Below the pieces are notes generated by a model. It searched no databases. It was not told the DNA's origin and worked only from the letters and a program-made list of their open reading frames with translations. This document shows, in pieces, positions 21,704-40,565 of a stretch of 64,000 nt of DNA. The position numbers and the translations under genes are program-made. The stretch is from a phage. Within the stretch, counting starts at the first letter, position 1. Each line of letters begins with the position of its first letter. The stretch lies in assembly GCA_012690745.1 (NCBI GenBank), contig GCA_012690745.1_4086.2; one strand, written 5' to 3'.

Positions 21704-21731
21704 TTGCACCGTACTGATAAAAGCGTATAAT
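21704..21731 (+). promoter_or_regulatory. early-type sigma70 promoter
   Basis: TTGCAC-16-TATAAT then GTTTTACATC and 5'UTR hairpin. Confidence 0.5.
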
Positions 21732-21786
21732 GTTTTACATCGAGAGCGGGAACACTTCCCGCTACACTTTAAGAGAGATTAATACG

Positions 21787-22149
21787 ATGGCAACTCAAAT
21801 CACCAAAATTATTGCTAACCTGGTTAACTTCCGCGACGAGATGAAAGATCTTCCGGCGGCGACGGTTAAAACTCACATTGACGCATACCGCGAACTGATT
21901 AAAATGCTGCCGCTTAAGCGTGAACAATACGCCGCTACCGTGATGCTTGATGCGATGATCCATAAGATGATCGCCAGTGATTTGACGATGGTTTATCAGT
22001 ATATGGGCGAAAATTTCGCGGTGTGTAGTAAGCCAGTACCAGGGATGGCAACAACTGAGGAATTGCACGGCTTAAACTTAAAACAAGATGCATGGGATAA
22101 TATGCCTCGTTTCCTGGTATGGGCTGACAGTGGCAAAATTTACAAATAA
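21787..22149 (+). CDS. hypothetical protein (120 aa)
   Basis: ORF track 21730..22149 trimmed to MATQITK; the upstream ATG lies in the promoter -10. Confidence 0.6.
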   Translation: MATQITKIIANLVNFRDEMKDLPAATVKTHIDAYRELIKMLPLKREQYAATVMLDAMIHKMIASDLTMVYQYMGENFAVCSKPVPGMATTEELHGLNLKQDAWDNMPRFLVWADSGKIYK

Positions 22150-22163
22150 GTTTAATAAAGTAC

Positions 22164-22191
22164 TTGCAAACTATGTTTAATGGCGTATAAT
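22164..22191 (+). promoter_or_regulatory. early-type sigma70 promoter
   Basis: TTGCAA-16-TATAAT. Confidence 0.5.
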
Positions 22192-22244
22192 GTTTTACAT
22201 CAGGTGGGGAATAGTTCCCCACTATATAAGAGGATTAAAAAAAA

Positions 22245-22484
22245 ATGGCTAAATCAAAAATGTTCTTAGGTCACAAAAACAAAACTCATTGGAATGTAAG
22301 CCTGTGGATTAATAACGATGAGGGATTGTATCGGTTGGCCCTGGACTTTATTGCCGCCAATACTAATCGCAATGATGCGGCCCGTCATATGATGTTATTT
22401 TTAGAACAGACTGGACAAGATAAAACACCGGACGGATTCAAATATAGCACTACTGCGATCCGTGCGGCGATGGTTGGAATGTAA
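22245..22484 (+). CDS. hypothetical protein
   Basis: ORF track. Confidence 0.6.
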   Translation: MAKSKMFLGHKNKTHWNVSLWINNDEGLYRLALDFIAANTNRNDAARHMMLFLEQTGQDKTPDGFKYSTTAIRAAMVGM

Positions 22485-22570
22485 TAGAATTTATTTAAAG
22501 TACTATCATTTTTTTGCGATAGTACTTTATAATAGTGTTTTATTCATACACCAACGATAAGGGCAACAGC

Positions 22571-22837
22571 ATGAATATTAAGTATTTTGCGACGCGTGAA
22601 CAAGCTCGGATCGCCGCACGCCAGGACGGGGCAACGTTTAAAGATATGGGAGCGGGATCGGCAAGTGGTAAACGTTGGGCCATTGTAAAGCGTAGTACGG
22701 CCAGATCATTACAGTACTGGTTAGCGGCCTTAAAAAGTCCCGATAGTGTATCGCGTCGAGTGGTAGAAATAAAGCTCGACCGAAAGGGCAACCGCGTGAC
22801 CGTGTACCGTACTAAAAAGATTGCAGTACTTGAATAA
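22571..22837 (+). CDS. hypothetical protein; paralogue of 35052..35447
   Basis: trimmed to MNIKYFATREQARIAAR; shared FATREQARI...TFKDMG...DRKGNRVTVY. Confidence 0.6.
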   Translation: MNIKYFATREQARIAARQDGATFKDMGAGSASGKRWAIVKRSTARSLQYWLAALKSPDSVSRRVVEIKLDRKGNRVTVYRTKKIAVLE

Positions 22838-22844
22838 AAAGTAC

Positions 22845-22872
22845 TTGCAAACTATGTTTAAAGGCGTATAAT
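22845..22872 (+). promoter_or_regulatory. early-type sigma70 promoter
   Basis: TTGCAA-16-TATAAT. Confidence 0.5.
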
Positions 22873-22924
22873 GTTTTACATCGAGAGCGGGAACTCTTCC
22901 CGCCTATAACCTGGAGTAATAAAA

Positions 22925-23155
22925 ATGACTAATATGTATATGACTGAAGTTAAAACCGTAAAAGATACTACCACGAATAAAACTACTTACTTACAGCGGA
23001 TCTGTGGTGTATGGCAACGTATCAGCAAATCAAAGTACTTTAAATTAACATCATATGCAAACCGTTCTGATTCATTCAGTACTGAAATAAAAGGTAATAA
23101 AGTACACCAATACGGCACTTATTATTATTACAGCCTGGACGCGATTGCAGTATAA
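22925..23155 (+). CDS. hypothetical protein
   Basis: ORF track. Confidence 0.55.
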   Translation: MTNMYMTEVKTVKDTTTNKTTYLQRICGVWQRISKSKYFKLTSYANRSDSFSTEIKGNKVHQYGTYYYYSLDAIAV

Positions 23156-23185
23156 GCAGTTTACAAATCTTTACAATTGCCGGTA

Positions 23186-23214
23186 TTGACTTATTTTGTC
23201 AGTACTGGCATAAT
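23186..23214 (+). promoter_or_regulatory. sigma70-type promoter upstream of a structured noncoding element
   Basis: TTGACT-17-CATAAT. Confidence 0.45.
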
Positions 23215-23404
23215 GTATTCATTGGCAGATAAGCCGTAGCCCATAGGGTGCGGGAGTGTATCTATAGAAAAATTAGTTTAGTATAGTTACAATTGTGCAC
23301 CCGGTGGGTTAGCTGTTGTCATGGGGTATATTATGCCAGTACTTGATAATGCTGTCAATACTTTTTTTTACTATCCAGTACAGAAAACTATTTTTAAAAA
23401 GTAC

Positions 23405-23432
23405 TTGCAAACTATGTTTAAAGGCGTATAAT
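23405..23432 (+). promoter_or_regulatory. early-type sigma70 promoter
   Basis: TTGCAA-16-TATAAT. Confidence 0.5.
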
Positions 23433-23522
23433 GTTTTACATCAGGACGGGGAACGAAATAAGTAACTTCCCGTTAAGTAGCCCAGGAGTAAGGCACACGA
23501 AAAACTCCCCTGATAAAATAGT

Positions 23523-23550
23523 TTGACAAATGTTTTTAAAAGCGTATAAT
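23523..23550 (+). promoter_or_regulatory. early-type sigma70 promoter
   Basis: TTGACA-16-TATAAT. Confidence 0.5.
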
Positions 23551-23582
23551 ACTTACATCAACTACTGAATGAGGGTTATAAA

Positions 23583-24194
23583 ATGAAAACTATCACTACT
23601 ACTACTTTCGTTATGGATTTTTCTGAATTGAACGCAGAACAACAAACGTCAGCTATCGAACTGGTTCGGGAACGTGAAAAAAACTCAAACGACAATTATT
23701 TTTCTGAAAGTGAAATTGAATACTATAAAGAAACAGTACTACCGGAATATGGCATTAATGACGCTGAAATACAATTCAGTGGTTTTTGGTCCCAGGGTGA
23801 CGGTGCATCAATCAGTACTGACCACGTTGACGCAGTGAAGTTTTTACGCAAGGTTAGAGCGTTAACTAAGTATCGCTCAATCCGTCACCTGCTGAATGAA
23901 GATGAATTATCTATGAGGGTACAGCGTTCTCAATCCCGCTACTCACACGAAAACACTGTAAGCGGGTACATTGAATCGGGGTACACTGATTTAACAGCAA
24001 AACAGGAAGCGTTAGCCAATGAGCTTGAGGAATTGCTTACTGTTACTATTCGTGAATTATCTCGCAAGTTGTACCGTGATTTAGAGAATGCATATGAGGA
24101 TCAATTCACTACTGAGAACATCACGGCACTGATCGAGGGTAACGAGTATCAATTCAATGTTATTGATGGCGTAGTAGAATCAATCGCATATTAA
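23583..24194 (+). CDS. hypothetical protein (203 aa)
   Basis: ORF track; SD GAGGG. Confidence 0.65.
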   Translation: MKTITTTTFVMDFSELNAEQQTSAIELVREREKNSNDNYFSESEIEYYKETVLPEYGINDAEIQFSGFWSQGDGASISTDHVDAVKFLRKVRALTKYRSIRHLLNEDELSMRVQRSQSRYSHENTVSGYIESGYTDLTAKQEALANELEELLTVTIRELSRKLYRDLENAYEDQFTTENITALIEGNEYQFNVIDGVVESIAY

Positions 24195-24249
24195 TTTAGT
24201 ACTGAGATAATGGCGGGGAATGGTTCCCGCCTTTACTGAGGAATATCTA

Positions 24250-24537
24250 ATGAGCAAAGTAATTAGCTATACAGTATTAAGCAAGTCATTATCTATTAGC
24301 CAGTGCACTGATGGTTATTGGCTTTATGATGAATCGCGTGGCATGAATTTAGCTATGCGTGCAAAAACTGCTGAGGCGGCGTATCTTGAGGCACTGGAAT
24401 ACTACCAGGAACGATTAAAGGAAGTAGAAAACGATTATAATAACCTGAAAGCGAAAGTAGATCATTTCGTCGGGCAATTCGTTGACGATGACGAGGAAGA
24501 CGGGCACTACTGCGACCGTTGCGGATCTTACAGTTAA
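24250..24537 (+). CDS. hypothetical protein
   Basis: trimmed to MSKVISY; SD GAGGAA. Confidence 0.55.
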   Translation: MSKVISYTVLSKSLSISQCTDGYWLYDESRGMNLAMRAKTAEAAYLEALEYYQERLKEVENDYNNLKAKVDHFVGQFVDDDEEDGHYCDRCGSYS

Positions 24538-24554
24538 GTACTAAGGATTATCTA

Positions 24555-24761
24555 ATGAGTGATTTAATTGAACGTATCAAAGAGCTTGAAGAAAAAGAAT
24601 TACAGTTAATCGGATTGCGTAATAAAGTTTATTCAGAGCTTGGAGGCTTCATACAGGCTTGGGATAGTGGTGATCCTGATGCTTTACCTGCTAACCGCCA
24701 GGCGATGATCAATGATGTGAGAAGTGTCTTTGATTATGTTTTAAAAAGTACTGGACACTAA
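24555..24761 (+). CDS. hypothetical protein
   Basis: trimmed to MSDLIERIKELEE; SD AAGGA. Confidence 0.55.
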   Translation: MSDLIERIKELEEKELQLIGLRNKVYSELGGFIQAWDSGDPDALPANRQAMINDVRSVFDYVLKSTGH

Positions 24762-24779
24762 GCAATAAAGGCGTATAAT
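24752..24779 (+). promoter_or_regulatory. possible sigma70 promoter (weak -35)
   Basis: TGGACA-16-TATAAT. Confidence 0.35.
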
Positions 24780-24831
24780 ACTTTATATCGAGAGCGGGAA
24801 TAGTTCCCGCTACTAATGAGGAATACTACAA

Positions 24832-24996
24832 ATGAATACTTTTACCTTCGCTCAATTGAACGCCCTGGATGTATTGTCTGATGCTTTGCGGGATGCAACT
24901 GAAAGCGGTTTATTTGACAATGTTGACATTCACCCTGATGTAATTAATAATTTTTGTGATGCTATCGCAGAAGTACTGGAAGATCTAAAAAAATAA
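24832..24996 (+). CDS. small hypothetical protein (54 aa)
   Basis: manual ORF MNTFTFAQLNALD; follows promoter, hairpin and SD GAGGAA. Confidence 0.45.
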   Translation: MNTFTFAQLNALDVLSDALRDATESGLFDNVDIHPDVINNFCDAIAEVLEDLKK

Positions 24997-25006
24997 TAGA
25001 AAGTAC

Positions 25007-25034
25007 TTGCAATTAGTTTTTAGTACTGTATAAT
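25007..25034 (+). promoter_or_regulatory. early-type sigma70 promoter
   Basis: TTGCAA-16-TATAAT. Confidence 0.5.
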
Positions 25035-25084
25035 AGTTTACATCAAGGGGAGAAATGGTTCTCCCTGGTAATGAGGAAAATAAA

Positions 25085-25306
25085 ATGGCTAATATCACTA
25101 CTCTTTCCCAACTGGAAGCACTGGTTAAATCTATGCGGGAACATGCCGACAATATCGGCGTAAAAGATCCAGCCGTTTGCTTCTGCGACGAAATGAATGA
25201 TGATACACTGGTAATAGCAGAAGTACAAGATATTTCTAACTATTCATCGCGTTACACTGGCGGCGTAGCAAATAAAGGTGACTTCTGTTTATACCTTACC
25301 AAATAA
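25085..25306 (+). CDS. hypothetical protein
   Basis: trimmed to MANITTLSQ. Confidence 0.6.
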   Translation: MANITTLSQLEALVKSMREHADNIGVKDPAVCFCDEMNDDTLVIAEVQDISNYSSRYTGGVANKGDFCLYLTK

Positions 25307-25474
25307 CAACGCGGGGAGATAATAACTCCCCGTTACTTTTTCAGTACTGAATCATTTAATAGACGGATCTCGGCACCCTGTGGGTTAGTGACTGTATCGT
25401 CTTTATGTAGTAATTATGCCAGTACTGGATGCAGTTGTCAACAATTATTTTTCAAATACTTTTTATTAAAATAC

Positions 25475-25502
25475 TTGCTATTAGTTTTTAAACGCGTATA
25501 AT
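25475..25502 (+). promoter_or_regulatory. early-type sigma70 promoter
   Basis: TTGCTA-16-TATAAT. Confidence 0.45.
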
Positions 25503-25549
25503 GTTTTGCATAGGGGGAGCGGTTCCCCTGGTAACTAAGGAATAAGAAA

Positions 25550-25786
25550 ATGGTCGAACAAATCAAATCAACGTCTTCGAATGTAACGGGAACGGTAGCA
25601 CACTTTACTAGTGATGAATCGCGGGGCGTTCCCTATTGTGCTGTACATGTAAACACTGAGGGTAACTACTGGTTTACGGTTTACGGATCATATTCATTTG
25701 GACGGCCAGGGCATCAAAAAATTCTGGATAAAGTACAACCAACGGGTAAAAATATCACTGCCGAAATGTTTTATAAAAAATCATAA
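25550..25786 (+). CDS. hypothetical protein
   Basis: ORF track. Confidence 0.6.
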   Translation: MVEQIKSTSSNVTGTVAHFTSDESRGVPYCAVHVNTEGNYWFTVYGSYSFGRPGHQKILDKVQPTGKNITAEMFYKKS

Positions 25787-25789
25787 AGT

Positions 25790-25817
25790 ACTTGATAATA
25801 GTTTTTAGTACTGTATA
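25790..25817 (+). promoter_or_regulatory. early-type sigma70 promoter
   Basis: TTGATA-16-TATAAT. Confidence 0.45.
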
Positions 25818-25870
25818 ATATTTTACATCGCAAGGGGGAGCGGTTCCCCCTGGTAACTAAGGATAATCAA

Positions 25871-26170
25871 ATGAAAATTGCAATCATCGCCCTGGCTTTA
25901 TCTGTTTCCTCTTTCGCTGTTAATGCGTCGTTAGATGTAAGTAGTGAAAAATTCATTCAGTGCACTGTAGCGATGACCAATGAAAGTACTGGCGAGATTG
26001 TTTTAAAGGATTTAGAGATCCAGCCCGAAGCATTTAAAAACGGGCCGTTCCATGAAGAAGACGAAAACGGTAGCACAACAATTTATTACGATGCAAGTAC
26101 TAAACGCGGTTCGGTCACTGTAATGGATACTGAGAAAGTAACGCACACAGGAGTAATTAACTGTTTATAA
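25871..26170 (+). CDS. small secreted or periplasmic protein (predicted signal peptide)
   Basis: N-term MKIAIIALALSVSSFAVNA is a typical Sec signal. Confidence 0.6.
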   Translation: MKIAIIALALSVSSFAVNASLDVSSEKFIQCTVAMTNESTGEIVLKDLEIQPEAFKNGPFHEEDENGSTTIYYDASTKRGSVTVMDTEKVTHTGVINCL

Positions 26171-26187
26171 TCTAGTACTGAATCACT

Positions 26188-26219
26188 AGCCCACTTATAC
26201 AGTGGGCTTTTTTGTTTTT
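26188..26219 (+). terminator. intrinsic terminator
   Basis: AGCCCACT-TATAC-AGTGGGCT then TTTTTTGTTTTTG. Confidence 0.65.
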
Positions 26220-26266
26220 GTAGTATCGTAGTACTGCATACTTTGAAAATAGTTTTAAAAAAGTAG

Positions 26267-26294
26267 TTGACATTACCAGGGAAAAGCGTAGAAT
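26267..26294 (+). promoter_or_regulatory. sigma70-type promoter
   Basis: TTGACA-16-TAGAAT. Confidence 0.45.
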
Positions 26295-26408
26295 GTATTA
26301 CATCAAGACGGGGAACATTAAGTAGACCGCCAGTAAGTCGAATGAAAAACTGGACACGTCAAACAAACTTTGATAAACTAACTTAAACTTTAATTGAGGA
26401 TTTATAAA

Positions 26409-26891
26409 ATGGCTAATGTAAAATCATTTCTGAAAGCACTGATTTCTAACGATACTGTTATTGCTGCTGAATTGCTGGCTGACCTGGATAATGATACCAT
26501 GAAAGCAGTACGCAACAATTTTAACATTGCTTACAGTGAAGCGAAAGAACTACAAGCCAAAAAGGTAGCAGAACTGGAAGAACAGAAAAAAGCCCGTGAA
26601 GCAGAACTGCAAGCAACAATAGAAAGTATTCAGGCGGCGGTGTCTGGTTTAGATCTGGAAGTGGTTATTGAAATGGCACATAAAGCCCTGGCGGTTAAGT
26701 ACGGTGAAGATAAGCCGGAATCTAAGCCTAAAAAATGGATTCAAGAACGTGTTACTGTTGTCCTTGATAACGGGGAAGAACATTTGATTCCTGTACGCGG
26801 TAACTGCATTGCGGTAGTACTGGATGCAATCAAAGAAAGCGGTATGACTCGCGAGGAATGGATCGAAGCTCACCGCAAAGTTGAAGCATAA
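26409..26891 (+). CDS. hypothetical protein (coiled-coil-like, KE-rich)
   Basis: trimmed to MANVKSFLK. Confidence 0.6.
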   Translation: MANVKSFLKALISNDTVIAAELLADLDNDTMKAVRNNFNIAYSEAKELQAKKVAELEEQKKAREAELQATIESIQAAVSGLDLEVVIEMAHKALAVKYGEDKPESKPKKWIQERVTVVLDNGEEHLIPVRGNCIAVVLDAIKESGMTREEWIEAHRKVEA

Positions 26892-26912
26892 CAATTAAAG
26901 TACTGAATCACT

Positions 26913-26942
26913 AGCCCACTGTATAAGTGGGCTTTTTTGTGT
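26913..26942 (+). terminator. intrinsic terminator
   Basis: AGCCCACTGTATAAGTGGGCT then TTTTTTGTGTTT. Confidence 0.65.
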
Positions 26943-27092
26943 TTATCGTTTACCAGGCCACCAGCACCGCCTAGAATCGATTCTAACGCATTAAACTGAT
27001 TATCTGATGCATCGCCCTAGCTGGTGGCGTTAAGGTCGTTAGAATGCGATTGAGGACGTTTAAAGTATTTTGCAAAAAGTAATAAAAAGTAC

Positions 27093-27120
27093 TTGCACGA
27101 TTAAGAGATTAGCGTATAAT
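27093..27120 (+). promoter_or_regulatory. early-type sigma70 promoter
   Basis: TTGCAC-16-TATAAT. Confidence 0.5.
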
Positions 27121-27175
27121 GTTTTACATCGAGAGGGGGAAACGGTTCTCCTTCCAAATCAAAGGAATCAAAACA

Positions 27176-27403
27176 ATGGCTATCGTAATCGCTTATGTAA
27201 CTGGTACTACTGGCACTTCTTCTACTGTTGCTGTAATTACCAACAAGAAAGGTGCGGAATTACATTCTGCAATGGATACCTGGGCGGTAAATGAGTTCGG
27301 TCAGTGGGCAAGTGTAGCATATGTTGAAACCTATCAAGTGCCAACCATTAGCTTAACGGATCTCGGTGTAGATCGTATCCTTTGCCTGGATGAATTAAAT
27401 TAA
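27176..27403 (+). CDS. hypothetical protein
   Basis: trimmed to MAIVIAYVTG. Confidence 0.6.
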   Translation: MAIVIAYVTGTTGTSSTVAVITNKKGAELHSAMDTWAVNEFGQWASVAYVETYQVPTISLTDLGVDRILCLDELN

Positions 27404-27411
27404 AAAAGTAC

Positions 27412-27439: not shown

Positions 27440-27489
27440 ACATTACATCAAGGGGAGAAATGGTTCTCCCTGATAATGAGGAAACTAAT

Positions 27490-34541: not shown

Positions 34542-34544
34542 GTA

Positions 34545-34628: not shown

Positions 34629-34952
34629 ATGACTATGATCCTTGCCCAGAAAGTAGAAATGAAAATTGTAACTTCCTTTGACATTAAAGTTAATCGGTGG
34701 ACTGATAGCCACGGCAATACTTACCACTCATGCTACGTGTCTGCATTGATTGGTGACCGCTGGGAAGACCTGGGACATGAAACCTTTACTTACGGTTACG
34801 GTACACAAGGCGAATACACGGGCTTGGAGATCATTAAAGAAACTGTAATAGGTTTCAACCCGAAAGAGAAAGTACTACACAGAATTGAGGATGAGATCAA
34901 CAAAGAAATTACAGTTCGTTACTACGATGTAAAACGTAAAAAAGACATGTAA
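34629..34952 (+). CDS. hypothetical protein; paralogue of 27715..28059
   Basis: ORF track. Confidence 0.6.
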   Translation: MTMILAQKVEMKIVTSFDIKVNRWTDSHGNTYHSCYVSALIGDRWEDLGHETFTYGYGTQGEYTGLEIIKETVIGFNPKEKVLHRIEDEINKEITVRYYDVKRKKDM

Positions 34953-34974
34953 TAGAATCCATTTAAAGTACTAT

Positions 34975-35003
34975 TTGACATTGCCCAGATAGTACTTTAT
35001 AAT
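34975..35003 (+). promoter_or_regulatory. sigma70-type promoter
   Basis: TTGACA-17-TATAAT. Confidence 0.55.
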
Positions 35004-35051
35004 AGACTCTAACTTGTAGTACTAATTAACTTAACTAATAGGATGTACACC

Positions 35052-35447
35052 ATGATTACTAAATTCTTCGCTACCCGTGAACAAGCTCGCATCGTTGCTC
35101 GTGAAGAAGGTGAAACATTTAAAGACATGGGCAAAGATGCACCGAAAGGACAACGCTGGGCGGTACAGTTCAAAGAGATCTCTGATATTGTGAATTCACC
35201 TGAGCCTGTACTTACTGAAGCAGAACTAAAGCAAGCTCAAGAACTGGCTGAAGTACTGAACGCTCAAGATGACTTTTTGAAAGGTTCTGATATTGAAGTT
35301 ACAGTTAACGCAAATGCATGGACTCACGCGGATCACCTGGCAAACCTTAAGCGTCCAAGTGAACTGATTCGTAACCAGAAAGAGATCCGTCATGACCGTA
35401 AAGGAAACCGTGTAACAGTATACAGTAAACGCCGCCAGGTTATCTAA
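35052..35447 (+). CDS. hypothetical protein; paralogue of 22571..22837
   Basis: trimmed to MITKFFATREQARIVAR. Confidence 0.6.
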   Translation: MITKFFATREQARIVAREEGETFKDMGKDAPKGQRWAVQFKEISDIVNSPEPVLTEAELKQAQELAEVLNAQDDFLKGSDIEVTVNANAWTHADHLANLKRPSELIRNQKEIRHDRKGNRVTVYSKRRQVI

Positions 35448-35469
35448 TAACTTTGCAGTACTAACAACA

Positions 35470-35496
35470 CGGCGGGTTCAGTTCCCGCCTTTTTTT
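35470..35496 (+). terminator. intrinsic terminator
   Basis: GGCGGG-TTCAGTT-CCCGCC then TTTTTTT. Confidence 0.6.
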
Positions 35497-35511
35497 ATAG
35501 GATAAACTAAA

Positions 35512-35766
35512 ATGATGAAGGTACAACTATCTAAAGATAATATCTTGCGGGTACACTATAAAGCACCACAGAGAATCATCACAAAGGCCGTACAGCTTGC
35601 TAATGAGTTTATTAATGGTAGTCTATTACCCAGGAAGTTAAGCAACGGGAAACTACGTGTTATCGATGTAGACACTAACAATAGAATAGTAATTGAGAGT
35701 ACTGGAAAAATTAATCTATATGAACACCAACAATACAATAAAAAAATAAAACTAATATCACGTTGA
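35512..35766 (+). CDS. hypothetical protein
   Basis: ORF track. Confidence 0.55.
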   Translation: MMKVQLSKDNILRVHYKAPQRIITKAVQLANEFINGSLLPRKLSNGKLRVIDVDTNNRIVIESTGKINLYEHQQYNKKIKLISR

Positions 35767-35791
35767 CAGTACTCAATTGTTTTAGTATTAT
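35764..35791 (+). promoter_or_regulatory. sigma70-type promoter
   Basis: TTGACA-16-TATTAT. Confidence 0.5.
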
Positions 35792-35822
35792 GTATCTATA
35801 CCAACACAGAGAGAGAAACAAA

Positions 35823-36041
35823 ATGAAATTATCTAAAATCGAAAAGAAAACTATTGATGAAGCAGTGAAGCACGGTTATACCTTTCGTAATGATTCACAC
35901 TTCACCAGTTTTCAACAGGGAAACCGTACCATCAAAAAACTCATTGATAAAGGTTTACTCACTAAGGTTGATAACGGGAACGGTGTAGAATATCAACCGA
36001 CAGAAGACGCATTATCACTAAAGAAATATTCTATTATCTAA
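35823..36041 (+). CDS. hypothetical protein
   Basis: trimmed to MKLSKIEKK; SD AGAGAGA. Confidence 0.55.
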   Translation: MKLSKIEKKTIDEAVKHGYTFRNDSHFTSFQQGNRTIKKLIDKGLLTKVDNGNGVEYQPTEDALSLKKYSII

Positions 36042-36042
36042 T

Positions 36043-36070
36043 TGACAGTACTCAAATGTTTTAGTACTAT
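36043..36070 (+). promoter_or_regulatory. sigma70-type promoter
   Basis: TTGACA-16-TACTAT; near-duplicate of the 35764 promoter. Confidence 0.5.
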
Positions 36071-36098
36071 GTACGCATACCAACACGGGGAAAACAAA

Positions 36099-36341
36099 AT
36101 GATTACTTTAGAAAAACGTATCAAAGAGACTACAACGCTGGTGGAACTGTTAACCGTTCTTAAATGCCGGGTAACTCCATTCAGTACACCGGACTTTATC
36201 AACATGGTGGACGTTAACGGTCGATATCGTATTGCGGTCGAACAAGGTACGGCAAAAGTATTCAGTACTAAAAATACGCGTGAAGTATTCCACGCAGTTC
36301 AAGTAAAAAAAGTAGTTGCCATTGATAGTAAAGTACTGTAA
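36099..36341 (+). CDS. hypothetical protein
   Basis: trimmed to MITLEKRIKE. Confidence 0.55.
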   Translation: MITLEKRIKETTTLVELLTVLKCRVTPFSTPDFINMVDVNGRYRIAVEQGTAKVFSTKNTREVFHAVQVKKVVAIDSKVL

Positions 36342-36372
36342 TATAGTTTCATTAACTCAAGGAGTCAACACA

Positions 36373-36957
36373 ATGCGTAACTATACTAAATTCATCCGTT
36401 CACTTCATGCAATGGAAACCAACAAAGAGATCCTTTCAGCTTGTCGGTTAGCTGGACTGGAGATCGTCGGTGCGGGTTCTTCCCGTATTGTATTCGCTTT
36501 AAATGATCGGTTAGTGATTAAGGTCGCGAATTGTGATGCGGGTGTAGAACAAAATGAAACTGAATGTAAGGTATGGAATTTTTTAGATTATGACCGTCCG
36601 CACCTTAAACAGTTCTTTGCCAAGGTGCATATGCATTTAAGCGATCCTGATAATATGTTTATCGTTATGGATCGGTTGAGTACTGCAAGCAAAGGCAGTG
36701 TAAAGCACGTTAACGCGTGCAACGAATTAAAGTACAATATTAAACGTAATGCAATTGAACGCCAGCACCGCTTTGCTGATGCACTACAACACGTTGATGA
36801 TACACTGTCAACACTAACGATAAGAGATATCAGAAAACAGAATATCGGCCAGGATCGCAACGGCCTTATTAAAGTACTTGATTACGGTTTAACCCGCAAT
36901 ATCTGGAATCAGTACTATAAAAAGCGGGATGTAAAAGCCGTAACTATAACACGATAA
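36373..36957 (+). CDS. protein-kinase-like protein (putative Ser/Thr kinase fold)
   Basis: G-loop VGAGSSRIVF, Lys in VIKV, catalytic-loop-like IRDIRKQN, DYG in place of DFG, with kinase-like spacing; SD AAGGAG. Confidence 0.55.
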   Translation: MRNYTKFIRSLHAMETNKEILSACRLAGLEIVGAGSSRIVFALNDRLVIKVANCDAGVEQNETECKVWNFLDYDRPHLKQFFAKVHMHLSDPDNMFIVMDRLSTASKGSVKHVNACNELKYNIKRNAIERQHRFADALQHVDDTLSTLTIRDIRKQNIGQDRNGLIKVLDYGLTRNIWNQYYKKRDVKAVTITR

Positions 36958-36975
36958 AAAAGATTAAAAAAGGGA

Positions 36976-37004
36976 TTGACTTCGGTCAGTCCCTTTGCTA
37001 TTAT
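36976..37004 (+). promoter_or_regulatory. repeated hairpin-promoter module, copy 3
   Basis: GGGATTGAC-TTCG-GTCAGTCCC hairpin overlapping TTGACT-17-TATTAT. Confidence 0.45.
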
Positions 37005-37098
37005 ATATTCATTGAGAGATAGCTCACTGACCCACAGGGTGCATAAATGTATCTATTATATAAGTATTCAGTACTGAAAACTATTTGATAAAAAGTAC

Positions 37099-37126
37099 TT
37101 GCATTGTACTTAGAATCAAGTATAAT
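37099..37126 (+). promoter_or_regulatory. early-type sigma70 promoter
   Basis: TTGCAT-16-TATAAT. Confidence 0.5.
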
Positions 37127-37178
37127 GTTTTATATCGAGAGGGGGAAATGGTTCTCCCTGGTAATAAGGAATAAAATC

Positions 37179-37400
37179 ATGACTACAATGACTTGCATTT
37201 ACGCTTCCAATCTTCTGAATGATGCGGCCTTTAATGTTGATTCAGAATATCAATGTTATCGGGATGAAAATAAAAAAGTTTTTGTAGTTGATAATAATGG
37301 TTTCCATATTGAATTACAATCCGGTTTCACTGGTGTTGATGGTAAATCAGTGTGGGGCGTACAGGATGATAAAGGCACATATCATTTTAAACGTAATTAA
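37179..37400 (+). CDS. hypothetical protein
   Basis: trimmed to MTTMTCIY; SD AAGGAA. Confidence 0.55.
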   Translation: MTTMTCIYASNLLNDAAFNVDSEYQCYRDENKKVFVVDNNGFHIELQSGFTGVDGKSVWGVQDDKGTYHFKRN

Positions 37401-37403
37401 GTA

Positions 37404-37431
37404 TTGACAAAGTATATCAGTACTGTATAAT
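37404..37431 (+). promoter_or_regulatory. early-type sigma70 promoter
   Basis: TTGACA-16-TATAAT. Confidence 0.55.
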
Positions 37432-37486
37432 AGTTTACATCAAGGGGAGAATAGTTCTCCCCACACCAATAAAAGGAAACAAAATT

Positions 37487-37759
37487 ATGTCCAGCTACTC
37501 CGCTACTATGATCATTAAAGATATGAACGGTAATCCTACTTCTGCTGGTGGATCATTTGGAAATATTAACTTAGATGGGCGGTTATCCATGCAATCAGCC
37601 ATCGATACAGCGAAAGAAGTTTTTAAGAATGAATGTACTGTTAGTAAGCTGGATTATATGGGATTCGCTATCGAGAAAACTACTCGTTTTGTGAACTACA
37701 AAAATCCACTGATGATTGATACTAACCTGAAAGCTAACGAAGTGGGGTACTTATTATGA
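37487..37759 (+). CDS. hypothetical protein
   Basis: ORF track; SD AAAGGAA. Confidence 0.6.
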   Translation: MSSYSATMIIKDMNGNPTSAGGSFGNINLDGRLSMQSAIDTAKEVFKNECTVSKLDYMGFAIEKTTRFVNYKNPLMIDTNLKANEVGYLL

Positions 37760-37947
37760 CAGTAGAAGAAGTAAAAAAAGTACTGGCAGTACTACGATAT
37801 CATAATCATTGCAAGGTGAAGAATGATCCTGATTATCTCGATTCATCCCTGGAGGAAGACACCTTAAACGCGATAAGCCATATGCAAACATTAGCAAAGC
37901 GTATGACCGAAAAGAATAGGCCGGACTATATCGGAAATAAAATTTAA
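37756..37947 (+). CDS. hypothetical protein
   Basis: ORF track; ATGA overlap. Confidence 0.55.
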   Translation: MTVEEVKKVLAVLRYHNHCKVKNDPDYLDSSLEEDTLNAISHMQTLAKRMTEKNRPDYIGNKI

Positions 37948-37954
37948 AAAGTAC

Positions 37955-37982
37955 TTGCATTGTAGTTAGATTAACGTATAAT
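37955..37982 (+). promoter_or_regulatory. early-type sigma70 promoter
   Basis: TTGCAT-16-TATAAT. Confidence 0.5.
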
Positions 37983-38034
37983 GTTTTATATCGAGAGGGG
38001 GAAATGGTTTCCCCTCAAGTCCAGGAGATACACC

Positions 38035-38298
38035 ATGAACGCTATTGAAATCACTATCAATGCACACGTATACGACAACGTAGTACTGCAAACTACTATG
38101 ACCGCTAACGATACCAGTACTTTGCGGAATACTGTTATTAGTGCCGTATGTGCTGCAATCGGTGATGTATCCCTGGAAAATGCAGAACATATCAACAACG
38201 GTTTCACTATGTGCAAGCGTGATAACGCAAAACATATCATCGTAGAAGGTTACGGCGGTGTAGAATTTAATGTTTATATGAAAAAAGTACTTGCATAA
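38035..38298 (+). CDS. hypothetical protein
   Basis: trimmed to MNAIEITIN; SD CAGGAGA. Confidence 0.6.
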   Translation: MNAIEITINAHVYDNVVLQTTMTANDTSTLRNTVISAVCAAIGDVSLENAEHINNGFTMCKRDNAKHIIVEGYGGVEFNVYMKKVLA

Positions 38299-38318
38299 TA
38301 ACTAAAACAAAGTATAAT
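38291..38318 (+). promoter_or_regulatory. early-type sigma70 promoter
   Basis: TTGCAT-16-TATAAT. Confidence 0.5.
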
Positions 38319-38365
38319 GTTTTGCATAGGGGGAGATATCCTCCCCCACTAAAAGGAGTAATAAA

Positions 38366-38590
38366 ATGGCTAACTTTGATGAACTGATGCGGGAAGTAGC
38401 TAACCTGGCAGAAGAGAAGAAATCATTCGATTCTATCTATAACACCGCTCACCGTGATTCAGTACTGGCATGTACTCAGGATCAAAAAGATGAACTAATC
38501 GCCACCTATCATGAAGCATGGAAGTACTACCGACAATGGGAGAAAGAAGAAAGTGAGTCTACCATTGACGGCCTCAATAATCTAATCTAA
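38366..38590 (+). CDS. hypothetical protein
   Basis: ORF track; SD AAGGAG. Confidence 0.6.
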   Translation: MANFDELMREVANLAEEKKSFDSIYNTAHRDSVLACTQDQKDELIATYHEAWKYYRQWEKEESESTIDGLNNLI

Positions 38591-38608
38591 AAGTTTTATT
38601 TCAGTACT

Positions 38609-38638
38609 ATTGACATAGCTTGATAGTACTGATGTAAT
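38609..38638 (+). promoter_or_regulatory. sigma70-type promoter
   Basis: TTGACA-18-TGTAAT. Confidence 0.4.
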
Positions 38639-38666
38639 AACTTTACTAACTACAAGGGGAAACATA

Positions 38667-38924
38667 ATGGAACAGTTCACACAATATCGGGTAAATCCTC
38701 AAGCTATGGCCTACGTAGAAGACCATAAAACATTACCAGTACAGACACCAATCAAAGGCCGTATCTATCGTGCTATGCAGTGGAATAACGCCTATAATGG
38801 CTATAAAGCGGTAGCGGCTGCAATGTACTTAGGGGATGGTGAATGGTTTGATCCAAATAATCCTGGTGCACTAGATAGTACTGAACAAATGACATGGGCC
38901 GACTATATCGAAGATATCTCATAA
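38667..38924 (+). CDS. hypothetical protein
   Basis: ORF track. Confidence 0.6.
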   Translation: MEQFTQYRVNPQAMAYVEDHKTLPVQTPIKGRIYRAMQWNNAYNGYKAVAAAMYLGDGEWFDPNNPGALDSTEQMTWADYIEDIS

Positions 38925-38931
38925 AAACTAT

Positions 38932-38959
38932 TTGACAGTACTACAAGATAATGTATAAT
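38932..38959 (+). promoter_or_regulatory. early-type sigma70 promoter
   Basis: TTGACA-16-TATAAT. Confidence 0.55.
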
Positions 38960-39012
38960 GTTTTACATAGAGCGGGGGAATAGTTCTCCCGCACCTTTAG
39001 GAGTAAAACATT

Positions 39013-39213
39013 ATGTCAATCGCTAACGAATTGGTTGCAGTACTGAATGAAGCAAAAGCCAACCGCATCGATGTACAGATCAAAGAGCTTGGCAATGGCT
39101 TGATCGGCTGTACTTGTTCCGTGCAAACGGCTACCGATTATCGGGAAGTGGAATCACTCGAATCACTGGTACGGTATATTAAAATCCTGGTAGAAGATTG
39201 GAGAATCATCTAA
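39013..39213 (+). CDS. hypothetical protein
   Basis: ORF track; SD AGGAG. Confidence 0.6.
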   Translation: MSIANELVAVLNEAKANRIDVQIKELGNGLIGCTCSVQTATDYREVESLESLVRYIKILVEDWRII

Positions 39214-39234
39214 CAAAAAAGAATAAAAAAGGGA

Positions 39235-39263
39235 TTGACTCTGGTCAGTCCCTTTGCTATTAT
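39235..39263 (+). promoter_or_regulatory. repeated hairpin-promoter module, copy 4
   Basis: GGGATTGAC-TCTG-GTCAGTCCC hairpin overlapping TTGACT-17-TATTAT. Confidence 0.45.
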
Positions 39264-39386
39264 ATACGCATAGACAAAAACTAGCCCACAGGGTGCAGAG
39301 AAGTATCTGTAAGATAGTTAATAACGGTGAGTAACTATCTGCTGGTGGATGTAATTCCAGTACTCAAAACTATTTCAAAAAAAGTA

Positions 39387-39415
39387 TTGACAAAGTATAT
39401 CAGTACTGCAATAAT
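39387..39415 (+). promoter_or_regulatory. sigma70-type promoter
   Basis: TTGACA then CAATAAT about 16-17 bp downstream. Confidence 0.4.
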
Positions 39416-39468
39416 GTATCTCGTAGGGCGGCAATAGTGCGACGGCCCACAAAGTTAGGAGATTCAAA

Positions 39469-39795
39469 ATGAGTACTTCAATCGCTATCGTTAAAGCTTT
39501 CATCCGTACCAATTTCGACCGCATTACTGTTGATGGTAATGATCGGGAAGTAGAATACTCTTTCATCGTTGCACAAACCGCAAACGGTGCACGCTATATC
39601 TTAAACGATAGTGAAGCTAACCACTACTTCTATAATAAAGGATTACACTATATCCCTAGCGAAGTAGTCTACACTAAGATGAATAAATTAGTAGACAAGA
39701 TTAACGCGAAAGGTACTATAGATTTACAGTACTGGACCGAAACAGATCCAGAATACGGATCACATCGTTACCTGAATCCAGGTATTAAAATGTAA
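39469..39795 (+). CDS. hypothetical protein
   Basis: ORF track; SD AGGAGA. Confidence 0.6.
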   Translation: MSTSIAIVKAFIRTNFDRITVDGNDREVEYSFIVAQTANGARYILNDSEANHYFYNKGLHYIPSEVVYTKMNKLVDKINAKGTIDLQYWTETDPEYGSHRYLNPGIKM

Positions 39796-39802
39796 AAAGT
39801 AC

Positions 39803-39830
39803 TTGCATAGTACTTAGAATCAAGTATAAT
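39803..39830 (+). promoter_or_regulatory. early-type sigma70 promoter
   Basis: TTGCAT-16-TATAAT. Confidence 0.5.
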
Positions 39831-39885
39831 GTTTTACATAGAGAGGGGGGAAATGGTTCTCCCTCCTAAATTAAGGAGTTTTATC

Positions 39886-40287
39886 ATGACCTTCTCAATC
39901 ACTTCCTTCGCTGATGTTTTAGTACTGGCTCGGACTTTTGGTAAAGATGCACTGGAGTACGCTGTAAGTAATGGCACTCTCCAACCGGAACAATGCCGCA
40001 TCATTGGAAACTGCAAACGTTGGGCGGTATCCAATACTATTGCACTAGAAAACTTCAACGATGGTAACAATGAGTATTCAGTTGATGCAGTATTCGAAGC
40101 CGTTGATCTTGGCGGTATCTATAACACTAACCTAAATGATGTGCGTATCGTTCGCACGGGGTTCGGTGCTTATGATGTATCTATCCGTGAAGCTATGAAC
40201 ACCGGATACATTAGTAAGGACTTACTTGCTCACATCATGCAGCTATGGACGGAACGTAACGAAGCACGCACTATCTTAGGACTATAA
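39886..40287 (+). CDS. hypothetical protein
   Basis: trimmed to MTFSITSF; SD AAGGAG. Confidence 0.6.
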   Translation: MTFSITSFADVLVLARTFGKDALEYAVSNGTLQPEQCRIIGNCKRWAVSNTIALENFNDGNNEYSVDAVFEAVDLGGIYNTNLNDVRIVRTGFGAYDVSIREAMNTGYISKDLLAHIMQLWTERNEARTILGL

Positions 40288-40355
40288 GCATTACACATCA
40301 CCAAACATCATAGGCCGCTCTCTAGCGGCCTTAACTATATCAGGAGGGCATACAT

Positions 40356-40565
40356 ATGTTCTATACAGTATACAGCGTTCTAGGTACTATTGCTGGCGTA
40401 CATGATAACGTCAGTGATGCTATGCGTACAGTACTGCAACAGGTTCCACTAAAGCCTAAGACTGTTAAGCAGATGACAGCACGACTAACCAGGGCGACGG
40501 ATGGCGTGGAAGTATGGCAGGACTACGGGGATACACAGATAATCGTTAGCGTAACGAAGGATTAA
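40356..40565 (+). CDS. hypothetical protein
   Basis: ORF track; SD AGGAGGG; preceded by AGGCCGCTCTCTAGCGGCCT hairpin. Confidence 0.55.
   Translation: MFYTVYSVLGTIAGVHDNVSDAMRTVLQQVPLKPKTVKQMTARLTRATDGVEVWQDYGDTQIIVSVTKD

Follow-up and report, generated by a model that had tools for sequence, protein, structure and literature searches.

What are the hairpins that precede tiny genes in an early region of a jumbo coliphage, and do they act as RNA? This question is raised by positions 21704-40565 of a 64,000-nt phage sequence (GenBank assembly GCA_012690745.1, contig GCA_012690745.1_4086.2; the whole stretch is referred to as the window). Judged by its sequence, the window comes from a jumbo coliphage of Asteriusvirus type (121Q/PBECO4/RaK2-like). 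The initial annotation described here a block of about 53 small genes, most of them with a private promoter and a covarying hairpin in the 5' untranslated region (5' UTR). Its core idea, early-gene promoters joined to a hairpin constrained as RNA, is supported by five lines of evidence. In our reading, the block is built from portable early-expression cassettes similar to the PeSL cassettes of T4-like phages, and promoter-hairpin units appear to drive about half of its ~51 tiny genes. A dense plus-strand gene block does lie where it was described, whereas the gene number is slightly lower: counting plus-strand open reading frames (ORFs) with a Shine-Dalgarno (SD) sequence from 21787 to 40565 gives 51.

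21704-40565, plus strand: early-gene block with 51 small genes (45-203 aa), 41 sigma70-like promoters and 24 leader hairpins

Among the 24 leader hairpins, 23 follow a promoter and one (24212) is preceded by a decayed promoter, of which phage 121Q has an intact version. The four hairpins quoted in the initial annotation were found at their places, and the GAA-N3-5-TTC centre ascribed to them is kept in 21 of 24. Read 5' to 3' in DNA, a cassette consists of an A-rich/AGTAC segment, a -35 box (TTGCAN or TTGACA), a 16-bp spacer, TATAAT, a 7-nt discriminator and a predicted +1 A. Without exception, the 23 promoter-bearing cassettes show a perfect TATAAT behind a 16-bp spacer, and the eighth nucleotide after the -10 box is A. 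In the following list, +1 positions are predictions.

21704-21786, plus strand: hairpin cassette; -35 TTGCAC, 16-bp spacer, TATAAT 21726, +1 A 21739 (predicted), hairpin 21745-21763, AUG 21787
22164-22244, plus strand: hairpin cassette; TATAAT 22186, +1 22199, hairpin 22203-22223, AUG 22245
22845-22924, plus strand: hairpin cassette; TATAAT 22867, +1 22880, hairpin 22887-22903, AUG 22925
24212-24249, plus strand: leader hairpin without canonical promoter (promoter intact in the 121Q orthologue); hairpin 24212-24231, AUG 24250
24752-24831, plus strand: hairpin cassette; TATAAT 24774, +1 24787, hairpin 24793-24811, AUG 24832
25007-25084, plus strand: hairpin cassette; TATAAT 25029, +1 25042, hairpin 25047-25066, AUG 25085
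25475-25549, plus strand: hairpin cassette; TATAAT 25497, +1 25510, hairpin 25511-25530 (GAG…UUC apex), AUG 25550
25792-25870, plus strand: hairpin cassette; TATAAT 25814, +1 25827, hairpin 25833-25851, AUG 25871
27093-27175, plus strand: hairpin cassette; TATAAT 27115, +1 27128, hairpin 27133-27154 (two internal G·U), AUG 27176; synteny break with phage UE-S1 inside the hairpin
27412-27489, plus strand: hairpin cassette; TATAAT 27434, +1 27447, hairpin 27452-27471, AUG 27490
28939-29017, plus strand: hairpin cassette; TATAAT 28961, +1 28974, hairpin 28979-28998, AUG 29018
29168-29245, plus strand: hairpin cassette; TATAAT 29190, +1 29203, hairpin 29208-29225, AUG 29246; alternative pairing of 3' arm with SD, -12.6 kcal/mol
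29764-29842, plus strand: hairpin cassette; TATAAT 29786, +1 29799, hairpin 29805-29823, AUG 29843
30199-30279, plus strand: hairpin cassette; TTGACA/TATAAT 30221, +1 30234, hairpin 30239-30257, AUG 30280
32320-32395, plus strand: hairpin cassette; TATAAT 32342, +1 32355, hairpin 32360-32378, AUG 32396
32942-33018, plus strand: hairpin cassette; TTGACA/TATAAT 32964, +1 32977, hairpin 32982-33001, AUG 33019
34186-34265, plus strand: hairpin cassette; TTGACA/TATAAT 34208, +1 34221, hairpin 34226-34244, AUG 34266
34545-34628, plus strand: hairpin cassette; TTGACA/TATAAT 34567, +1 34580, hairpin 34587-34605, AUG 34629
37099-37178, plus strand: hairpin cassette; TATAAT 37121, +1 37134, hairpin 37140-37159, AUG 37179
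37404-37486, plus strand: hairpin cassette; TTGACA/TATAAT 37426, +1 37439, hairpin 37444-37462, AUG 37487
37955-38034, plus strand: hairpin cassette; TATAAT 37977, +1 37990, hairpin 37995-38016, AUG 38035
38291-38365, plus strand: hairpin cassette; TATAAT 38313, +1 38326, hairpin 38329-38347 (GAG-AUAUC-CUC apex), AUG 38366
38932-39012, plus strand: hairpin cassette; TTGACA/TATAAT 38954, +1 38967, hairpin 38972-38992, AUG 39013
39803-39885, plus strand: hairpin cassette; TATAAT 39825, +1 39838, hairpin 39843-39865, AUG 39886

Predicted transcripts start with AU(C/A/G) and carry 1-6 unpaired nucleotides before the stem (5 nt in 11 of 23 cassettes). The stem, which begins 12-13 nt after the -10 box (range 8-14), is 7-9 bp long with folding energy of -8 to -15 kcal/mol; its 5' arm is always G/A-rich and SD-like, its 3' arm always C/U-rich. 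Loops are 3-5 nt long (UAG seven times, AUGG six times, AUGA twice, and others). Between stem and AUG lie 17-24 nt of unstructured A-rich RNA containing the SD, so that the entire leader measures 40-49 nt, and a U-tract is missing behind all 24 hairpins. Since the SD is unpaired in minimum-energy folds, the modelled hairpin does not occlude it. A switch in which the 3' arm alternately pairs with the SD was rejected as a general mechanism: this pairing is weak (-0.6 to -5.7 kcal/mol), with stronger values at promoters 29190 (-12.6 kcal/mol) and 29786 (-8.3) alone.

Two further properties of the arms and loops were observed. The 5' arms (e.g. in hairpin 25047-25066) are better SD mimics than the real SDs of the genes: 17 of 23 arms scored pair with the anti-SD at -8 to -10.8 kcal/mol, most real SDs at about -5 to -6. 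Nine loops contain AUG (AUGG/AUGA/AAUGG) located 2-3 nt after GGAGAA, and in three of the genes this AUG shares the reading frame of the ORF.

The promoter unit AAAGTACTTGCAA-N16-TATAATGTTTTACATC was initially said to recur about 40 times. Taken literally, as a 45-nt unit scored at ≤3 mismatches, it occurs 15 times (0 expected); the figure of about 40 is correct only for all sigma70-like plus-strand promoters in the block (n=41). These fall into 23 promoters of hairpin cassettes, eight with a short unstructured leader, three with a structured leader of ~85 nt, six followed by the conserved element RCCCAYNGGGTGC but by no gene, and one with another hairpin. A perfect 12/12 TTGACA-N16/17-TATAAT is present in 11 of the 41, and TTGCAA-N15-18-TATAAT has 7 exact occurrences against 0.21 expected. 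Plus-strand promoter-like sites of the window are concentrated at 20-40 kb (47 of 70). At least one promoter lies directly upstream of 34 of the 51 genes; "most" is overstated for the hairpin, which precedes 24 of 51 (47%) and thus has 24 copies, not about 40.

We wondered how specific the hairpin is to these leaders. A covariance model built from the leaders (R1) was run with filters off on both strands of all 64 kb. It matched exactly the 24 leaders at 30-48 bits, all on the plus strand and all inside the block; the next match, at 16.5 bits, corresponds to a true leader read on its reverse strand. Windows of 34 nt from the predicted +1 fold at ≤-9 kcal/mol in 56% of cases, compared to 4.9% of random windows from the same region, and the same measure gives 57% in UE-S1 and 35% in an Erwinia phage. 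Shuffle z-scores of single leaders are modest (-1.7 to -3.6), hence the evidence for hairpins is positional and collective. Rfam search of 19000-42000 at E≤1 retrieved nothing relevant, and exact matches to TATAATGTTTTACATC in IMG/VR were for the most part isolated chance occurrences.

The arms of the 24 hairpins were anchored at the apex and pairs were counted from the loop outward. Positions 1-7 are paired in 168 of 168 cells, although the pairs themselves vary: position 4 is GC in 12, AU in 7 and GU in 5 hairpins, position 6 is GC19/CG4/GU1 and position 7 GC18/AU3/UA2/GU1. Position 5 is G-C in 24 of 24. Eleven G·U pairs occur in positions 1-7, their G always on the 5' side, whereas A·C is absent. 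On the other strand these G·U pairs would be mismatches, hence the pairing acts in plus-strand RNA. When arms were recombined across hairpins (17 distinct arm pairs among the 24), the contiguous stem shrank from 8.0 to 5.5 bp. The claim of covarying stems is thus borne out by pair counts, and likewise by comparison between phages. Alignment of leaders to quantify covariation, which the initial annotation had proposed, was done with real arms only and placeholder loops. In 35 distinct hairpins from five phages, double-sided changes occur in all 9 pairs (43 cells) and arm polarity is never reversed. The covariation score of this set, which was chosen for pairing ability (an ascertainment bias) and whose copies are related by descent, is 0.470 against 0.229±0.018 for shuffles, none of 500 reaching it, and slid registers score ≤0.19. 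An alignment fitted by the model gave a weak structure count (79.6% paired, with a +1 slide scoring equally), because the model forced a 4-nt loop and thereby shifted the register of hairpins with 3-nt loops. Taken as comparative evidence, these patterns indicate that the hairpin works as plus-strand RNA.

A test free of this bias was based on orthology of the downstream gene, using leaders of UE-S1 and 121Q with a fold cut-off of ≤-7.5 kcal/mol. The hairpin is kept in 39 of 43 gene-anchored orthologous leaders, about 11 of which have altered stem, loop or entire cassette, for example GGGGAGAA/UUCUCCCC replaced by GGGAAGUA/UACUUCCC. Where single bases differ in orthologous stems, G·U is interchanged with G-C or A-U. 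Among the four exceptions, three leaders are replaced by a hairpin-less promoter cassette and one is decayed.

Position of the hairpin relative to the transcription start was approached by analogy. The RefSeq-annotated +1 of T7 promoter A1, which is used by E. coli RNA polymerase, is the A of ATCGAGAGGG, eight nucleotides after GATACT; compared with this promoter, cassettes 27115, 37121 and 37977 have an equal 7-nt discriminator and identical first ten transcribed bases. Moreover, in the class with long leaders, pairing of the terminal helix begins exactly at the predicted +1 A. Because of this shared start and discriminator and the start of the long-leader helix, the hairpins very probably lie in the 5' UTR, and the initial placement of the hairpin directly after the start site agrees with a predicted +1 upstream of it.

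What could such a hairpin do? We tentatively favour, at a little below even chances, the reading that it is a 5'-proximal protective and insulating mRNA element. Once the hairpin has folded and the ribosome-binding site (RBS) is occupied by a ribosome, about 5 nt of the ~45-nt leader would stay single-stranded, a scant target for attack of RppH/RNase E type. The hairpin would also keep the RBS clear of upstream sequence, whether this stems from its own promoter or from a read-through transcript. The outcome would be a strong, context-independent early burst of protein made from transcripts of host RNA polymerase. In E. coli, well-translated mRNAs with more single-stranded 5' UTR decay faster and the first four nucleotides matter (PMC11541907); ompA and papA mRNAs are stabilised by 5'-terminal stem-loops, according to references 93-95 as cited in PMC3997798 (Emory/Bouvet/Belasco 1992). 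RppH favours transcripts with a purine as second nucleotide (PMC8833179), and in the predicted transcripts of the 23 cassettes this nucleotide is always U. Folding places a stem-loop at the start of T7 A1, A2 and phi10 RNAs as well.

Several points weigh against this reading. Classic stabilisers are reported by Emory, Belasco and colleagues to need the stem within ~2-4 nt of the 5' end. The modal overhang here, given the predicted +1, is 5 nt (11/23, range 1-6), which would exceed this limit and argue against a classic stabiliser of ompA type. RppH and RNase E need just 2-3 unpaired nucleotides (PMC8833179). Scanning RNase E readily bypasses a simple stem-loop (PMC9943677), and the idea of a barrier to its scanning is weakened by the same work. 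Eight promoters of the block, as well as sister-phage orthologues of two hairpin genes, use short hairpin-less leaders; since such leaders serve neighbouring and orthologous genes, the hairpin seems dispensable for expression. Fixed arm polarity and the GAA/UUC apex (21/24) go beyond what "any stable stem" would need and could mean recognition by a protein or RNA polymerase. The ascertainment bias and common descent of the 35-hairpin set count here as well, and the literature searched contained no transcription start mapping, half-life or expression data for phages of the Asteriusvirus group.

Recognition is the substance of the alternative that we regard as rather unlikely, in which the G-rich/C-rich stem and its GAA/UUC apex are a binding site for RNA polymerase or for an RNA-binding protein encoded by phage or host. 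Coordinated timing of translation, decay or shut-off would then make the hairpin-class early mRNAs a post-transcriptional regulon. The GAA-N3-5-UUC apex in 21/24 hairpins, the G-C at position 5 in 24/24 and the absence of any polarity flip among the 35 distinct hairpins all fit such a tag. So does the overhang of 5 nt, a poor match to pure 5'-end protection, and the side-by-side presence of promoter classes with and without hairpin would permit differential control. On the other hand, Erwinia stems lack the GAA/UUC apex (GGGGAG/CUCCCC, GGGGGUA/UAUCCCC, GGGAAGAG/CUCUUCCC) and loop length ranges from 3 to 6 nt; cassettes are freely exchanged between orthologous genes and phage families, no candidate binding protein was identified, and the conservation may merely reflect recent common descent of the cassettes. 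Quite unlikely is the compound version, in which the hairpin, instead of a generic stabiliser, is a shape- and sequence-specific tag recognised by a dedicated factor of phage or host or by RNA polymerase, timing two dozen early mRNAs and mobile with its promoter between jumbo phages and unrelated Vequintavirinae, while RCCCAYNGGGUGC units form a second, nut/put-like layer of the control. The hairpin might instead act co-transcriptionally: it would emerge with the polymerase over the SD/AUG, at about +35 to +40, and bring about or stabilise a pause or block backtracking, thereby coupling the first ribosome to the polymerase or helping clearance from very strong promoters. Distances of the hairpin to promoter and AUG are indeed tightly fixed, loops such as AAUAGU and AAUGGU are weakly -10-like, and the promoters are near-consensus; at such promoters, escape or proximal pausing can be limiting. 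Yet no consensus pause signal was identified and the hairpin-less class manages without a hairpin, which leaves this explanation improbable.

Three other explanations were weighed. The hairpin might be an attenuator of PeSL kind that attenuates or terminates transcription coming from upstream cassettes, so that each gene is served mainly by its own promoter. PolyG/polyC stem-loops from promoter cassettes of the T4-like phages RB49 and phi1 cut reporter read-through as strongly as rrnB T1 (PMC2839356), and stems found here are likewise made of G-runs and C-runs. However, the hairpin lies downstream of its own promoter and would attenuate its own transcripts too, and 0 of 24 hairpins have a U-tract or are terminator-like, as opposed to about nine canonical T-run terminators in the same block. 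Terminator calling on the plus strand agrees: none of the 24 leader hairpins was called, whereas the canonical terminators of the block were. We consider this role very improbable, and the terminator/attenuator reading was rejected on account of the missing U-tracts. The hairpin could also become the 3' end of the upstream message, if RNase E cut the AU-rich leader of read-through RNA and the hairpin blocked 3' exonucleases. Terminators are few for 41 promoters, therefore nested read-through transcripts are expected, and hairpin 24212 persists without promoter. Such protection nevertheless leaves unexplained why the hairpin always follows a promoter; it is fixed relative to the downstream promoter and AUG and not to the upstream stop codon (upstream gaps of 55 to 284 nt), which renders this idea highly improbable. 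Finally, the hairpin may have no RNA function at all, being a DNA palindrome (operator or recombination site) or a passenger of duplicated cassettes, with covariation as an artefact. The cassettes are repeated and clearly recombine, many copies are near-identical (hence 17 distinct arm pairs among 24), and the structure count on the model-fitted alignment is weak, though register-shifted. But a DNA palindrome should tolerate G·U and A·C equally, and 11 G·U stand against 0 A·C in positions 1-7. Compensatory GC↔AU, GC↔CG and GC↔UA exchanges, different stems at the same position in distant phages and the gene-anchored retention of 39/43 also speak against it, and we hold this explanation to be extremely improbable.

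Besides the presumed protection and insulation of mRNA, the ~100-bp cassettes may have a second role. As they are repeated, they could double as recombination modules by which single ORFan genes are inserted, deleted or swapped, both inside the genus and with unrelated coliphages. Their distribution was examined. A 101-nt cassette query matched 65 phage records, which comprise Asteriusvirus, Salmonella jumbo phages (7t3, Munch), Erwinia/Yersinia/Serratia jumbo phages and Vequintavirinae of ~140-150 kb. Erwinia phage Hallingskeid contains all four promoter classes within a syntenic block of 23 kb. Its 12 leader hairpins have unrelated stems (GGGGCGGA/UUCGCCCC, GGGAAGAG/CUCUUCCC, GGGGGUA/UAUCCCC, GGGGAG/CUCCCC) and frequently an ACAAC loop, and they start at +2 to +4 (overhang of 1-3 nt). 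Vequintavirinae phage A73 (~142 kb) shares five early gene blocks with the window at 77-85% identity, in other order:

22245-22484, 23383-23561, 27114-27629, 29924-30150 and 30264-30553: blocks shared with A73, 77-85% identity

At least two of these five have the same promoter/hairpin cassettes. The shared blocks thus point to horizontal exchange between unrelated coliphage families. Six indel or synteny breaks relative to UE-S1 were examined. In three of them (24988; 27134-27170, inside the hairpin; 32934), an edge falls within a hairpin cassette or closely upstream of one. Another break, at 24196, ends just before the promoter-less hairpin 24212, and the one at 33960-34174 extends from the leader of a hairpin-less promoter to the upstream edge of the next cassette. 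In sum, single-gene indels have edges at or near cassettes.

The remaining promoters of the block differ from hairpin cassettes in what follows them. Those with genes behind short leaders, and the one with a different leader hairpin, are:

23523-23582, plus strand: hairpin-less promoter; TTGACA-16-TATAAT 23545, short unstructured leader, gene 23583
27653-27714, plus strand: hairpin-less promoter; CATAAT 27676, inverted repeat across -35 (27645-27674), gene 27715
30512-30583, plus strand: hairpin-less promoter; CATAAT 30535, inverted repeat across -35 (30504-30533), gene 30584
30791-30862, plus strand: hairpin-less promoter; TATAAT 30813, gene 30863
31903-31959, plus strand: hairpin-less promoter; TATAAT 31925, gene 31960
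33918-33975, plus strand: hairpin-less promoter; TATAAT 33940, gene 33976
34975-35051, plus strand: hairpin-less promoter; TATAAT 34998, gene 35052
35763-35822, plus strand: hairpin-less promoter; TATTAT 35786, gene 35823
39387-39468, plus strand: promoter 39410 with a different leader hairpin, GGGCGGCAAUAGUGCGACGGCCC; gene 39469

The GGGCGGCAAUAGUGCGACGGCCC hairpin behind promoter 39410 is also conserved in Hallingskeid. Promoters at 27645-27681, 30504-30540, 38601-38632 and 23178-23214 form a class with a 9-13 bp inverted repeat across the -35 box (CAGTACTATTGACA…TGATAGTACTG) and TGnCATAAT. Its organization is operator-like, the leader is short and hairpin-less wherever a gene follows, and many copies are conserved in the Erwinia phage. 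In the upstream segments, AGTACT is a striking motif: the whole window contains 262 copies (~22 expected), and CAGTACTG 52 copies (0.7 expected). In 57 copies AGTACT directly precedes a -10-like hexamer ("cagtactgTATAAT"). Within the block 53 of 112 copies are located in coding sequence, and the motif is rare at 40-44 kb and 48-56 kb.

Promoters with RCCCAYNGGGTGC and those with long structured leaders, together with minus-strand units and canonical terminators, are as follows:

23186-23270, plus strand: promoter 23209 with RCCCAYNGGGTGC; core 23240-23251, no gene
29631-29716, plus strand: promoter 29654 with RCCCAYNGGGTGC; -35 in terminator hairpin 29624-29651, core 29686-29697
31314-31400, plus strand: promoter 31337 with RCCCAYNGGGTGC; core 31371-31382
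33673-33752, plus strand: promoter 33696 with RCCCAYNGGGTGC; -35 in terminator hairpin 33666-33693, core 33723-33734
36976-37060, plus strand: promoter 36999 with RCCCAYNGGGTGC; -35 in terminator hairpin 36969-36996, core 37031-37042
39235-39314, plus strand: promoter 39258 with RCCCAYNGGGTGC; -35 in terminator hairpin 39228-39255, core 39285-39296
25311-25441, minus strand: promoter (CATAAT 25418-25413), RCCCAYNGGGTGC (core 25384-25373) and bidirectional terminator (25333-25311), in this order
23280-23358, minus strand: promoter (CATAAT 23335-23330) followed by RCCCAYNGGGTGC (core 23308-23297)
23405-23525, plus strand: promoter 23427 with structured leader of ~85 nt (23440-23525), whose first six nucleotides AUCAGG pair with CCUGAU; followed by promoter 23545
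26267-26408, plus strand: promoter 26289 with divergent long structured leader (26302-26400; AUCAAG…CUUUGAU); gene 26409
33802-33922, plus strand: promoter 33824 with long structured leader (33837-33922); followed by promoter 33940
26188-26215, plus strand: canonical intrinsic terminator, AGCCCAC…GTGGGCT and T-run, in contrast to leader hairpins
26913-26940, plus strand: canonical intrinsic terminator
35471-35497, plus strand: canonical intrinsic terminator, bidirectional

RCCCAYNGGGTGC has 10 copies in the window (0.37 expected), with minus-strand cores at 21144, 21360, 23297 and 25373 and a variant at 21300-21327. Each copy is situated ~22-26 nt downstream of the -10 box of its own sigma70-like promoter, no ORF follows, and in many cases a short hairpin, variable between copies, closely precedes the element. 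Frequently the promoter in question has its -35 inside the preceding terminator hairpin: in hairpin AAAGGGATTGACTYCGGTCAGTCCCTTT (29624-29659, 33666-33701, 36969-37004, 39228-39263), loop and 5' arm contain the -35 box (TTGACT) of the next promoter. The core is nearly invariant in Hallingskeid (11 copies in 23 kb, one divergent) and in Salmonella phage 7t3, and multi-copy occurrence is chiefly confined to IMG/VR contigs of 345-394 kb. Two mutually exclusive mini-hairpins are possible in this element, the second of which at 21308 precedes a run of seven T and is terminator-like. Rfam contained no match to it, and RNAalifold found at most a 4-bp mini-hairpin without covariation. RCCCAYNGGGTGC may represent a family of small RNAs or a nut/put-like leader; the minus-strand unit at 25311-25441 could possibly yield an RNA of ~95 nt.

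As regards the long leaders, their terminal helix encloses two inner hairpins and covaries, AUCAGG/CCUGAU being changed to AUCAAG/CUUUGAU in the third copy. Together with a second promoter they form tandem promoters before genes 23583 and 33976. The long leader is 84% conserved in A73 (A73 2610-2700).

The relatives and the gene content of the block bear on its timing. Megablast of 21704-29704 matched 139 phage records, headed by Escherichia jumbo myoviruses of ~350-386 kb from the genus Asteriusvirus. The best relative is CMSTMSU (89% identity, 85% covered), followed by UE-S1, slurp01, G17, PBECO4 and 121Q; coverage by Asteriusvirus relatives is uneven (37-85%). The neighbourhood is syntenic with these phages, opposite-strand RCC1-like genes being followed by a long series of small plus-strand "hypothetical" genes, and in one relative the region matching the block is annotated within the direct terminal repeat. 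By sequence similarity, the block genes appear to be ORFans accompanied by a DksA/TraR zinc finger, a ParE-like domain and a GNAT acetyltransferase. Pfam gave nine family matches for the 51 genes, including the DksA/TraR zinc finger, ParE-like and GNAT domains, DUF7249 and DUF7247, and weak matches to two others (DUF1033 and the SAM_SMF domain); 31639-31896 and 31960-32316 are among the genes with recognisable products. In PHROG search of the 51 genes, every match was to a family of unknown function.

Synteny also links the block to what is inferred to be the early region in related jumbo phages (PMC5259590). In such regions the paper on CBB reports RpoD-like promoters with UP-like elements, inferred to be early (PMC5259590), and RNA-seq of PA5oct revealed dependence on host RNA polymerase and early transcription adjoining the terminal repeat (PMC7318152). 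The label "early/host-takeover" given initially is plausible but indirect, with support from gene content, this synteny and the terminal-repeat annotation in one relative; we infer that the block is plausibly an early, ORFan-rich region. Directly upstream of it, non-coding positions 20795-20959 contain a tandem repeat (48 bp × 3.4; 8-nt subunit CTAGACGG ×17), near which lies a 53-bp direct duplication (~21573-21678). Right after the block, at 40785-42051, six paralogous genes of ~70 aa (25-38% identity, common LGTNFQE motif) are translationally coupled by ATGA overlaps with no promoters between them, an organization unlike that of the cassette block.

Finally, we wondered if similar arrangements are known elsewhere. 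As far as sequences can tell, the cassette design resembles known phage designs and is not a new kind of system. PeSL (promoter-early stem-loop) cassettes of T4-like phages are the closest described system (Arbiol et al. 2010, PMC2839356; Comeau et al. 2014, PMC4122927). Repeated units of ~100 bp are common to both; each combines a polyG/polyC stem-loop with a consensus early promoter for sigma70 behind AT-rich sequence, and ends in SD and start codon. PeSL cassettes are enriched in plastic ORFan regions as well, and single-gene indels between relatives involve them. Our cassettes do have near-consensus sigma70 promoters with AT-rich upstream segment, and they do coincide with sites of gene insertion, deletion or replacement: three UE-S1 breaks fall at cassettes, and two more adjoin a related leader element. 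Stem-loop placement is different. In the five PeSL subclasses the stem-loop lies ahead of the -35 box, sits between the two promoter boxes or overlaps them, or directly precedes the start site, whereas in the 24 main cassettes it would be transcribed, starting at a fixed +2 to +8 in the 5' UTR, and not located upstream of or across the promoter. True PeSL-type layouts, with the stem-loop across -35, are found in other promoters of the block (29624, 33666, 36969, 39228, 27645, 30504). The 24 cassette stem-loops further differ by absence of terminator features and by RNA-level covariation, and the lineage concerned is Asteriusvirus with related jumbo phages and Vequintavirinae rather than T4-like phages. 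We thus rate the cassettes, on comparison of their sequences, as a variant on the PeSL theme with an apparently transcribed, RNA-constrained stem-loop.

In its presumed function the hairpin is reminiscent of ompA-type and T7 leader stems. With ompA/papA stabilisers the cassettes share a stable hairpin at the message start, free in sequence if paired, and then a ribosome-covered RBS. Covariation and stem replacement accord with the ompA-type rule that structure matters and sequence does not, but the predicted overhang is mostly 5 nt (1-3 nt in the Erwinia phage), and not the 2-4 nt reported for ompA. Little single-stranded leader is left, as in stability rules for synthetic 5' UTRs (PMC11541907). 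The T7 A1 transcript starts with AUCGAGAGGG, identical to several cassettes, and the discriminator length is equal. T7 phi10 has the hairpin GGGAGACC-ACAAC-GGUUUCCC with the same purine-5'/pyrimidine-3' polarity, and its ACAAC loop recurs in Erwinia leaders. However, model R1 gives no match to T7 leaders at E≤0.01, so that the resemblance is confined to architecture and the initial ATCGAGAGGG. In T7 the stems begin at +1 or +2 and belong to single promoters, in contrast to the cassette repeated 24-fold here, and phi10, a late promoter, is transcribed by T7 RNA polymerase and has its hairpin 42 nt from the AUG. CBB and GAP32 (PMC5259590) and PA5oct (PMC7318152) belong to the same supergroup, with short hypothetical genes in or near the terminal repeat and use of host RNA polymerase; these papers list promoters and terminators but no leader hairpin, covariation or cassette classes. 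We found no description of leader hairpins in the literature on RaK2-like phages, and the RaK2 paper contains no promoter analysis.

As compact natural parts (consensus promoter, 20-nt hairpin, 20-nt RBS), the cassettes may be suited for strong, context-independent expression in E. coli, a practical value that hinges on the function we infer for the hairpin. For phage biology, they would extend the idea of mobile promoter cassettes (PeSL) beyond T4-like phages, with a stem-loop demonstrably constrained as RNA. Early regions of jumbo phages, where nearly every gene is a "hypothetical protein", would gain a readable regulatory grammar of at least four promoter/leader classes. Cassette boundaries would mark points of ORFan exchange, including exchange between phage families, and may thus help to trace how host-takeover gene sets evolve.

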